Shown piece after piece: positions 14,385 to 14,624 of a DNA stretch of 64,000 bases (positions within the stretch are counted from its first letter, which is position 1; every line of letters begins with the position of its first letter). The DNA is taken from positions 472-64,471 of the forward strand of contig JBEBUZ010000008.1 of the NCBI GenBank assembly GCA_040393015.1. The letters are read 5' to 3'. The notes beneath the pieces were generated by a model. The model was not told where the DNA came from. It made no database searches and saw only the letters and a program-made list of their open reading frames with translations. Origin of the DNA: Niabella yanshanensis (GTDB lineage Bacteria > Bacteroidota > Bacteroidia > Chitinophagales > Chitinophagaceae). Position numbers and translations under genes: made by a program.

Positions 14385-14457
14385 AGCGGAAGACCGGGCT
14401 CGAACCGGCCACCCCGACCTTGGCAAGGTCGTGCTCTACCAAATGAGCTACTTCCGC
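14385..14457 (-). tRNA. tRNA-Gly (anticodon GCC)
   Basis: Hand-folded. Acceptor GCGGAAG/CTTCCGC. D arm GCTC-ATTTGGTA-GAGC. Anticodon arm CGACC-TTGCCAA-GGTCG. T arm GCCGG-TTCGAGC-CCGGT. Discriminator U. Confidence 0.9.
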
Positions 14458-14496
14458 ATATAGTTGGCACTATTTTCAATTTTAAAGAACTTTTAA

Positions 14497-14562
14497 CCGG
14501 GCTGAACCGGCCACCCCGATCCGCCGCGGCGGATCGTGCTCTACCAAATGAGCTACTTCCGC
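14497..14562 (-). pseudogene. tRNA-Gly-derived pseudo-copy: anticodon arm replaced by a GC palindrome, 3' acceptor strand missing
   Basis: Identical to tRNA-Gly from the 5' acceptor strand through the D arm. Then CCTTGCCAAGG is replaced by TCCGCCGCGGCGGA (14520-14533). The T loop carries a 1-nt deletion and there is no 3' acceptor strand. It is followed upstream by a duplicate of the 37-nt leader. Confidence 0.75.
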
Positions 14563-14616
14563 ATATAGTTGGTACTATTTTCAATTTTAAAGAACTTTCC
14601 TTTTTTAAAAGGAGTG

Positions 14617-14624
14617 CAAATATA
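14617..14624 (-). promoter_or_regulatory. Bacteroidota-type -7 promoter box (TAnnTTTG) upstream of the tRNA-Gly pseudo-copy
   Basis: The minus strand reads TATATTTG about 55 nt upstream of the pseudo-copy. No equivalent box lies between the pseudo-copy and the functional tRNA-Gly. Confidence 0.35.

Follow-up and report, generated by a model that had tools for sequence, protein, structure and literature searches.

What process leaves, between a functional tRNA-Gly gene and its promoter, a truncated copy of that same gene in which the anticodon arm has been exchanged for a GC-rich palindrome, and why does the very same palindrome recur in a broken copy of a tRNA-Met gene elsewhere on the same piece of chromosome? 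The question is raised by a 64,000-nucleotide stretch of DNA (contig JBEBUZ010000008.1 of assembly GCA_040393015.1), referred to below as the window, which represents core chromosome of a Niabella sp. (Chitinophagaceae, Bacteroidota) with a GC content of about 0.43. The palindrome is the 14-mer TCCGCCGCGGCGGA, hereafter P. We regard it as highly probable that the tRNA-Gly pseudo-copy belongs to a widespread family of P-patched partial tRNA copies, one that so far appears undescribed, and we consider it reasonably likely that both window features are gene-less or decayed units of a selfish element that is associated with tRNA genes and predicted to be nuclease-driven.

The tRNA-Gly locus is read on the minus strand and is made up as follows.

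14384-14457, minus strand: functional tRNA-Gly(GCC), last of the tandem pair (ARAGORN; Rfam tRNA, 61.5 bits)
14458-14495, minus strand: spacer or leader copy 2, consisting of 13 nt of native leader aaagttctttaaa and the 24 nt attgaaaatagtGccaactatat
14496-14562, minus strand, read from 14562 to 14496: pseudo-tRNA-Gly unit of the upstream type (direct reading, Tandem Repeats Finder)
14520-14533: the patch P, TCCGCCGCGGCGGA, in place of CCTTGCCAAGG (tRNA positions 30-40; direct reading)
14563-14598, minus strand: leader copy 1, 36 nt, with one mismatch to copy 2 (direct reading, BLAST)
14617-14624, minus strand: promoter box TATATTTG, of the Bacteroidota -7 type, upstream of the pseudo-unit

Tandem Repeats Finder resolves 14393-14598 as a 105-bp unit present 2.0 times, and BLAST recovers the duplication as one segment of 65 bp at 98.5% identity (14429-14493 against 14534-14598) and a second of 25 bp with one gap (14393-14417 against 14496-14519), in agreement with the head-to-tail duplication of about 104 bp that an earlier note, made from the letters of the window alone, had proposed for tRNA-Gly. 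That note gave the shared leader as 37 nt with one mismatch; the mismatch is there and sits in the loop of a small hairpin, and the length is 36 nt. The 24-nt spacer attgaaaatagtRccaactatat (14458-14481) itself makes a small hairpin, ATAGT/ACTAT. Direct reading bears out the makeup described for the pseudo-copy, with its kept arms, T-loop deletion, lost 3′ acceptor strand and exchange of 11 nt for 14: the unit comprises tRNA positions 1-29, then P, then positions 41-65, where the homology stops, and it has lost one G of the T loop and the entire 3′ acceptor strand. P takes the place of the anticodon arm, no 7-nt anticodon loop is left, and together with the kept outer stem pairs P makes a perfect 20-nt palindrome (14517-14536); the C-to-T and G-to-A changes that had been taken for compensatory substitutions are the terminal T and A of the patch itself. 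When both copies are scored, the real gene is recognized as a tRNA, and the pseudo-copy gives no tRNA match in 14340-14660 even at E ≤ 10 (Rfam cut-off 29 bits) and none with ARAGORN. An Rfam search of the whole window at E ≤ 1 returns nothing beyond the three tRNA genes.

The second occurrence of P lies beside a tRNA-Met gene on the plus strand, where the features are the following.

54119-54191, plus strand: functional tRNA-Met(CAT) (ARAGORN, Rfam)
54165-54217, plus strand: direct repeat 1, comprising tRNA-Met positions 48-76 and the terminator T1 (hairpin 54198-54213) (BLAST)
54218-54330, plus strand: putative remnant of the 3′ half of a GIY-YIG open reading frame (ORF) (hidden Markov model, HMM, and alignment to the end of the N. 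ginsengisoli ORF)
54331-54378, plus strand: pseudo-tRNA-Met of the downstream type, consisting of GCTCATA (positions 31-37), P and positions 48-76
54352-54404, plus strand: direct repeat 2, comprising the tRNA 3′ part and a copy of T1 (BLAST)

The two direct repeats are identical at 53 of 53 positions, and P, at 54338-54351, stands in for ACCCGAAGGT in the pseudo-tRNA-Met. A 37-nt inverted repeat, AACCTCGTAGATTTTCAAAACCTACGAGGTT (54410-54446), follows directly after the second T1 copy and forms a terminator-like hairpin before Era. Both window pseudo-copies are partial copies of the adjacent real tRNA gene and stand in tandem with it. As had been claimed, they share the same 14-mer, which occurs in the window at 14520 and 54338 only (0.00 expected), and the looser pattern TCCGCC-N0-6-GGCGGA finds the same two sites only (0.03 expected). 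The 14-mer links the Gly and Met pseudo-copies, and the tRNA-Gly pseudo-copy is therefore not a product of random decay, which the earlier note had already thought unlikely.

Across other genomes, P was sought by scanning one genome per species for the 14-mer followed by a T-loop motif within 20 nt, which gave at least 119 loci; the counts for these loci, here and below, are among the matches listed. The low-GC subset consists of 75 loci, mostly from Bacteroidota, and holds at least 127 P sites, 88 of which place P directly after CATA (the anticodon CAT and A37), and a gap of 5 nt between P and the T-loop motif is found in 99 scan matches from all 119 loci. Of the low-GC loci, 45 have a bona fide tRNA gene no more than 1.5 kb away, and in 42 of these 45 it is tRNA-Met(CAT). 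Carriers include Flavobacterium, Kaistella, Chitinophaga, Cyclobacterium, Algoriphagus, Lewinellaceae, and Aequorivita, with isolates and complete chromosomes among them. P is also present in copies of Gly(CCC), Val, Arg, Cys, Thr, and Asn tRNA genes, the hosts of these non-Met copies including a Terriglobales (Acidobacteriota), a Dehalococcoidia (Chloroflexota), and genomes of the candidate phyla radiation (CPR), along with contigs that have a GC content of 0.61-0.63. The suspicion that the 14-mer might be a common repeat with no preference for tRNA genes is thus half right: it is common, but it is specifically tied to tRNA fragments. Like repetitive extragenic palindromes (REP) and miniature inverted-repeat transposable elements (MITE), P is a short GC-rich palindrome that recurs within and across genomes; unlike them, it replaces internal stretches of tRNA copies rather than dispersing in intergenic DNA, and both window copies together with 88 of the 127 genome copies sit at the same tRNA coordinate.

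The architecture of the patched copies follows a small number of layouts. The 7-17 nt that P supplants lie between the D arm and the variable region, the position of P varies with the type of tRNA, and in CAT tRNAs the lost region is fixed at 38-47; replacement of a D arm or an anticodon arm spares the outermost stem pairs, which is also the case in the window. In the downstream type the order is real tRNA, T1, small ORF, positions ~21/31-37, P, positions 48-76, and a terminator, often repeated; in the upstream type a leader is followed by positions 1-37, P, and positions 48 to ~58-65, with up to several repeats before the real tRNA; and a mirror-image layout also occurs, in which the ORF has a patched 5′ fragment on one side and the real tRNA on the other. 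Head-to-tail arrays contain up to 10 units, each of about 100 bp. In the upstream arrays (n = 20) the native promoter, which in Bacteroidota is a TAnnTTTG box about 10 nt before the tRNA, precedes the first unit, and the real tRNA comes last, after an AT-rich spacer that has no such box. The window Gly unit has this upstream layout, with no 3′ acceptor strand, the promoter first and the real tRNA last. As the earlier note held, TATATTTG is the sole TAnnTTTG box, which is true for the minus strand between 14205 and 14921; the spacer at 14458-14495 has no such box, and the same box is kept upstream of tRNA-Gly in relatives. The tRNA-Gly gene probably depends on read-through of the pseudo-unit from this single upstream promoter, a proposal of the earlier note that gains from the 20 other loci with the same promoter-first, real-tRNA-last order. 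Separately, the AT-rich spacers between units in the upstream arrays of unrelated genera (the window, L204, L154, L259, L141, and L171) often contain ATTGAAA, ATTGAGA, or ATTGATT and end in ATAT right before the tRNA 5′ end.

These numbers also bear on whether the window could simply be mis-assembled, with two alleles joined in error and the shared 14-mer a coincidence or a contaminant. The window comes from a 69-kb contig of an uncultured Niabella, and contigs of its relatives break within tRNA-Gly, as an artefact might have it; the same architecture is nevertheless found in more than 100 independent genomes, isolates and complete chromosomes among them, a 14-mer with an expectation of 0.00 occurs twice and both times in tRNA fragments, and a sister lineage has a pseudo-copy at the same site, which makes an artefact scarcely credible. 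An engineered scar, cloning site, or sequencing adaptor (suggested by the SacII core) was ruled out by the presence of the motif in more than 100 independent natural genomes. As to the breaks themselves, the short-read (Logan) contigs of Niabella relatives L244, L245, L246, and L002 end within tRNA-Gly or tRNA-Met, and many members of the GIY-YIG family described below lie on contigs of 400-1500 bp; tRNA loci with units break assemblies, and copy numbers taken from draft genomes are for that reason not reliable.

A small ORF accompanies many of the patched copies and may drive the proposed element. ORFs that end 10-21 nt before the patched fragment match the Pfam family GIY-YIG (PF01541) with E values of 1e-13 to 1e-17, and GIY-YIG domains are DNA nucleases. 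The ORFs are 79-92 aa long, and the single domain spans the whole protein, with no separate DNA-binding domain. An HMM built from these ORFs finds such an ORF in 41 of the 119 loci, and 37 of the 75 low-GC loci have one no more than 700 nt from P. Family members were also looked up by protein alone, to avoid choosing loci by P, and all three of the members sampled in this way show the order tRNA-Met, T1, ORF, (g)gctcata, TCCGCC-N3-4-GGCGGA, tRNA 3′ part, T2. The closest solved relatives in sequence are UPF0213 BH0048 and SLX1, and the best sequence and fold matches are 1zg2, 1ywl, 6seh, 7cq2, and 4xlg. The AlphaFold model of the N. ginsengisoli protein (pLDDT 88.9) has a UPF0213/Slx1 fold with a probability of 1.0 and TM scores of 0.57-0.67, far above I-TevI or UvrC, the fold comparison giving E values of 2e-4 to 1e-2 for SLX1/UPF0213 versus 0.36 for I-TevI. 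The ORF is thus predicted to be a bare SLX1/UPF0213-type GIY-YIG nuclease; NCBIfam and PADLOC offer no meaningful family for it. SLX1 itself needs SLX4 and works in repair, and for the SLX1/UPF0213 (YhbQ-like) nucleases as a group we found no link to tRNA genes or palindromes in the literature searched. Carriage by phages is unsupported: in IMG/VR both the GIY-YIG family and the pattern of P plus T loop are essentially absent, and the bare 14-mer in viral contigs gives only chance matches in GC-rich coding DNA.

The same parts could in principle constitute a decoy or antitoxin RNA for the nuclease, in the manner of a type III toxin-antitoxin system, with the repeats acting as uncleavable mimics of a tRNA substrate; we hold this to be very improbable. 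As in ToxIN, some P loci combine tandem short repeats, a terminator, and a small nuclease gene, the succession of repeats, real tRNA, terminator, and ORF in L204, L154, and L262 mimicking ToxI/ToxN, and the patch replaces just the region that would be expected to differ between substrate and decoy. Unlike in ToxIN, however, the P-associated nuclease has a DNase fold, with SLX1/UPF0213 as its closest relatives; the repeats copy the neighbouring tRNA, which varies (Met, Gly, Thr, Asn, Cys, Arg, Val) in a manner that better fits a history of insertion than specificity for a substrate; and many loci lack one of the parts, many ORFs having a downstream fragment only and the window having units and no ORF.

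Orthologous sites within Niabella differ in whether an insert is present. At the Met site the gene order is 3-keto-disaccharide hydrolase, tRNA-Met, Era (the window Era is 93% identical to that of N. aquatica). N. ginsengisoli has there an upstream patched unit, the real tRNA, T1, an intact 81-aa GIY-YIG ORF, the sequence TTAGAGCTCATA-TCCGCCAGTTGGCGGA-CCCAGGTTCG..., and T2, whereas N. aquatica and a Logan relative have the site without an insert. The window junction TTTAGAGCTCATA-P-CCCAGG... matches the TTAGAGCTCATA junction of N. ginsengisoli (L262, 1744-1780), and the 113-bp Met spacer of the window aligns with the end of the N. ginsengisoli ORF. Because the N. ginsengisoli ortholog has an intact nuclease gene and the same junction, the Met copy in the window is read as a decayed element. 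The stretch 54218-54330 is probably the remnant of the 3′ half of the GIY-YIG ORF: it scores 7.7 bits against the GIY-YIG HMM at model positions 45-82 (the C-terminal half), the match falls in the expected place and frame, and the reading frame contains two in-frame stops and ends with the codon TAG at 54327-54329. In the N. ginsengisoli assembly GCA_022513635.1 the region from the hydrolase through tRNA-Met and the GIY-YIG gene to Era is present on three contigs (L262, L263, and L264), with Era split into short ORFs, which suggests either an assembly or sequencing problem or a real triplication.

At the Gly site the gene order is GT2, a small ORF, the promoter, tRNA-Gly, and tRNA-Leu, and the comparison requires two further rows.

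14250-14336, minus strand, window: tRNA-Leu(TAA) (ARAGORN, Rfam)
L244 4020-4168 and L245 2460-2609 (Logan SRR29844869/56), nearest relative: older pseudo-tRNA-Gly with TCCCGATAGTTGTCGGGA

The site is empty in N. insulamsoli and in a JGI contig, where the leader ends ...aaagttctttaaa directly before an identical tRNA-Gly and the 24-nt attgaaaatagtGccaactatat is missing. In the nearest relative, whose GT2 is 86% identical, a diverged pseudo-tRNA-Gly with TCCCGATAGTTGTCGGGA as its anticodon arm stands behind the native leader, and the real tRNA-Gly stands behind a different spacer; a more distant relative has no pseudo-tRNA-Gly at the site. The orthologous loci thus show either no second copy or a pseudo-copy with another palindrome, and the ordinary second tRNA-Gly that would have spoken against the earlier note is found in none of them. 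Since the pseudo-copy of the nearest relative is older and bears another palindrome, and other relatives are empty, the process has, on this comparison of sequences, acted repeatedly at the Gly site within the genus, and both the Met and the Gly sites are polymorphic among relatives for presence, absence, and decay. Two neighbours of tRNA-Leu may be recorded here: a perfect tandem repeat of TTGTATGCAAA (2.2 copies, 14171-14194) lies just 3′ of the gene in the window, and in N. insulamsoli (L266, 4170-5038) a phage-type integrase gene lies about 540 bp 3′ of tRNA-Leu(TAA), an ordinary integrase island that is absent from the window.

How such an element might join its target is indicated by the terminators. 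In six comparable loci the real tRNA and the internal copies carry T1, whereas the last copy carries a different terminator, T2; the T2 of N. ginsengisoli is similar to the terminator that the Logan relative has at its empty site, and its T1 to those of the window and N. aquatica. This pattern and the promoter-first arrays are as expected if a patched element recombines beside P. The joining mechanism, life cycle, and role of P that we infer can be outlined as follows. The element would carry a partial, patched copy of a tRNA as a kind of attachment site, and would join the host within the tRNA sequence, on one side of P. The product would be one intact tRNA, now flanked by element DNA (spacer or T1), while the displaced host flank (promoter and leader, or T2) would stay on the patched, truncated, and non-functional copy. 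Unequal exchange could then build arrays, and the nuclease gene would later decay or be deleted, as in the life cycle of homing endonucleases, leaving units like those of the window. At the Gly site, tRNA-Gly would be transcribed through the pseudo-unit and then released by normal 5′ processing.

An outline of this kind inevitably recalls the islands and prophages that tyrosine integrases insert into tRNA genes, and the units might accordingly be relics of integrase-driven islands, the copies being remnants of attL and attR and P the core site of the recombinase. As with such islands, the P insert restores an intact tRNA with sequence borne by the element and leaves the displaced partial tRNA as a direct repeat at its far end, here of 53 bp formed by the tRNA 3′ part on both sides of the Met insert; the T1/T2 pattern is the one that att-type integration would produce; and L125, discussed below, has cassettes of unrelated cargo bounded by patched fragments. 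The P units nevertheless differ in that no integrase or recombinase gene lies in or beside them in the window and the loci examined, in that they can be as short as about 100 bp and stand in head-to-tail arrays of up to 10, in both 5′- and 3′-side versions, and in that P sits inside the leftover copy at a position that differs between tRNA types, whereas a classical attR keeps the native tRNA 3′ part with no replaced stretch. We therefore judge descent from integrase islands improbable. A transposon footprint, which would make P a pair of adjoining 7-bp terminal inverted repeats, was likewise rejected, single elements having one P and the real tRNA having no half-site.

The structure of P itself offers some guidance to its role. 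P has fixed arms, TCCGCC/GGCGGA, around a variable centre (GC, AC, GT, AGTT, GAC, TCC, or CAA), and because a rigid duplex dimer site would not tolerate a spacer of 2-4 nt between the arms, we infer that P acts as a stem-loop in single-stranded DNA, in a cruciform, or in RNA. A rigid dimer site on duplex DNA was set aside on that ground as unlikely, and recognition of CCGCGG in the manner of Eco29kI/Cfr42I was dropped, the variants losing CCGCGG and keeping the arms. Some units (L154, L236, and L240) have a second patch, TCCCGAT(A/G)GCTATCGGGA, in place of the D arm, and this patch is also seen outside a tRNA context in L169, L182, and L254. The arms of P (TCCGC.../...GCGGA) equal the acceptor-stem strands of tRNA-Gly (14384-14457) in swapped order, and those of the second patch, TCCCG/CGGGA, are similar to the acceptor stem of fMet; each patch has the appearance of a tRNA 3′ end joined head to tail with a 5′ end, which may be a coincidence of GC-rich stems. 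Some patched units also have insertions in the D loop, namely the palindrome CCTGCCTGCCGGCAGGCAGG (L218, 4789-4815, also in L151) and the 26 nt tgcttcggctacgctcagcacagggt (L194, 2130-2160).

A stem-loop of this kind between promoter and gene might be of use to the host, the patched tRNA-like leader serving, for example, as a signal for processing, stability, or attenuation, with the conserved hairpin recognized by an RNA-binding factor of the host. The pseudo-unit does lie between the only promoter box and the real tRNA, the exchange of one hairpin for another keeps the outer pairs and yields a stronger stem (-9.5 versus -6.6 kcal/mol), and fixed arms with a variable centre fit a stem-loop. 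The same patch, however, also occurs 3′ of terminators, in 5′-truncated fragments that are unable to fold like a tRNA; close relatives do without it; the units differ in extent and decay freely; the arms are conserved in sequence with almost no covariation; no Rfam family is matched; and the leader folds only modestly better than shuffled sequences (z -3.0). A host function is on this evidence unlikely, and the view, implicit in the earlier note, that the hairpin-bearing leader is a regulatory or stable RNA found no support.

Within the selfish-element reading, P could act in one of two ways. It may be an immunity patch that removes the nuclease site from the leftover copy, which is in keeping with the fact that every leftover copy is patched, that positions 38-47 are removed in CAT tRNAs, and that perfect P stands beside intact ORFs. 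Alternatively, P may be a stem-loop recognized by a structure-specific nuclease, as the SLX1-like fold, the fixed arms, and the variable loop would fit; a cut at P would be liable to remove the unit or to erase P, which weighs against this option. A related scheme, in which cutting at P serves ends-in recombination, was rejected by reasoning, gap repair being expected to erase P, yet P adjoins intact ORFs.

Several findings count against the selfish-element reading or limit its reach. In the window itself an HMM search finds no GIY-YIG nuclease gene in the 64 kb, no GIY-YIG remnant was found beside tRNA-Gly, and the Met ORF remnant ranks 4-7 of about 7,600 tiles, with a window-wide E of about 1.7, which is weak when taken alone. 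Both Gly copies carry the 24-nt spacer, and a single joining event does not reproduce this arrangement, so that a later tandem duplication or array contraction is needed. The Gly-GCC patch of the window (P at 30-40) was not found in any other genome or metagenome, and 0 of 15 matches of a metagenome scan are Gly-GCC copies, though the pattern covers that patch; the genome scan, for its part, required P together with the T-loop motif, which biases its counts towards exact P. As to mechanism, the real tRNA beside intact ORFs stays unpatched, which leaves simple target-site immunity incomplete; the conservation of the P arms across phyla is unexplained by inactivation alone; and a catalytic domain of 80-90 aa with no DNA-binding domain leaves the targeting of tRNA genes unexplained. 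In the Chitinophaga metagenome-assembled genome (MAG) L125, finally, patched fragments bound cassettes that have no GIY-YIG gene: patched 3′ fragments lie at 2335-2660, 3903-4223, 5539-5747, and 6333-6444, with a boundary repeat of about 210 bp, the cassettes are about 1.6 kb long and hold unrelated cargo genes, and there is no tRNA within 8 kb, which together looks like an array of small islands with the patched fragment as their boundary.

Further sites of P in low-GC genomes have a context that is not obviously that of a tRNA (L219, L142, L150, L151, L168, L127, and L201). In L219 (~7880-7960) two copies of P lie 33 nt apart between inverted flanks, four Bacteroidetes MAGs share a conserved element gtcatatcgaagga-P-...cccatgttcaa, and Kaistella has the stem cttttta-P-taaaaag; an Rfam search of these contexts returns only a signal recognition particle (SRP) RNA about 700 nt away in L150.

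Among described systems, the nearest in habit is T4 SegB, a free-standing GIY-YIG homing endonuclease of a phage tRNA cluster, which like the P loci places a GIY-YIG gene beside tRNA genes. Seg-type elements likewise show present, absent, and decayed sites among relatives together with tandem amplification; by contrast, Seg and I-TevI have a DNA-binding domain whereas the P-associated ORFs are the catalytic domain alone, and the P elements are chromosomal and not found in IMG/VR, unlike the phage-borne Seg. We know of no Seg element that leaves partial copies of its target patched with a conserved hairpin. The family is thus set apart from Seg-type elements and integrase islands alike by its bare catalytic nuclease, the lack of a recombinase, the hairpin in leftover tRNA copies, and head-to-tail arrays that may stand on either side of the gene. 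For SegB, amplification of segments with tRNA loci is reported (PMC13096335).

These traits allow a bolder proposal, which we put forward as a doubtful but not idle possibility: the family may represent a new class of mobile element, in which a bare SLX1-like GIY-YIG nuclease is coupled with a portable stem-loop, TCCGCC/GGCGGA, written into adjacent copies of tRNA genes in place of the D arm, the anticodon arm, or positions 38-47. Such an element would spread with no recombinase by joining within the tRNA sequence, bracket an essential tRNA between patched copies and sit between the gene and its promoter or terminator, a position-based form of addiction or of a cleave-and-rescue-like strategy that could be retargeted to many tRNAs across phyla.

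Full-text literature searches, which included the sequence itself and the terms UPF0213, COG2827, and YhbQ, returned no description of the P family, with the limit that subscription journals are mostly uncovered and a prior account is possible; a paper on prokaryotic tRNA gene fragments mentions neither palindromes nor nucleases. For the window, the outcome is that neither pseudo-copy is a gene. If the selfish-element reading is true, many Bacteroidota and some CPR, Acidobacteriota, and Chloroflexota carry an unnoticed selfish element at their tRNA genes, mostly those for Met, fMet, and Ile2, and the large orphan UPF0213 family of bacterial SLX1-like nucleases would acquire its first biological context. 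It would also explain the assembly breaks at such tRNA loci, as well as a class of "tRNA pseudogenes" and of tandem arrays resembling tRNAs, which are ignored or mis-called in automatic annotation. The conservation of a 6-bp hairpin stem from Flavobacterium to Dehalococcoidia implies specific recognition between protein and nucleic acid, which is potentially useful as a tool, and the family raises the question of how an element that consists of a nuclease only uses an essential, invariant gene as its landing site.

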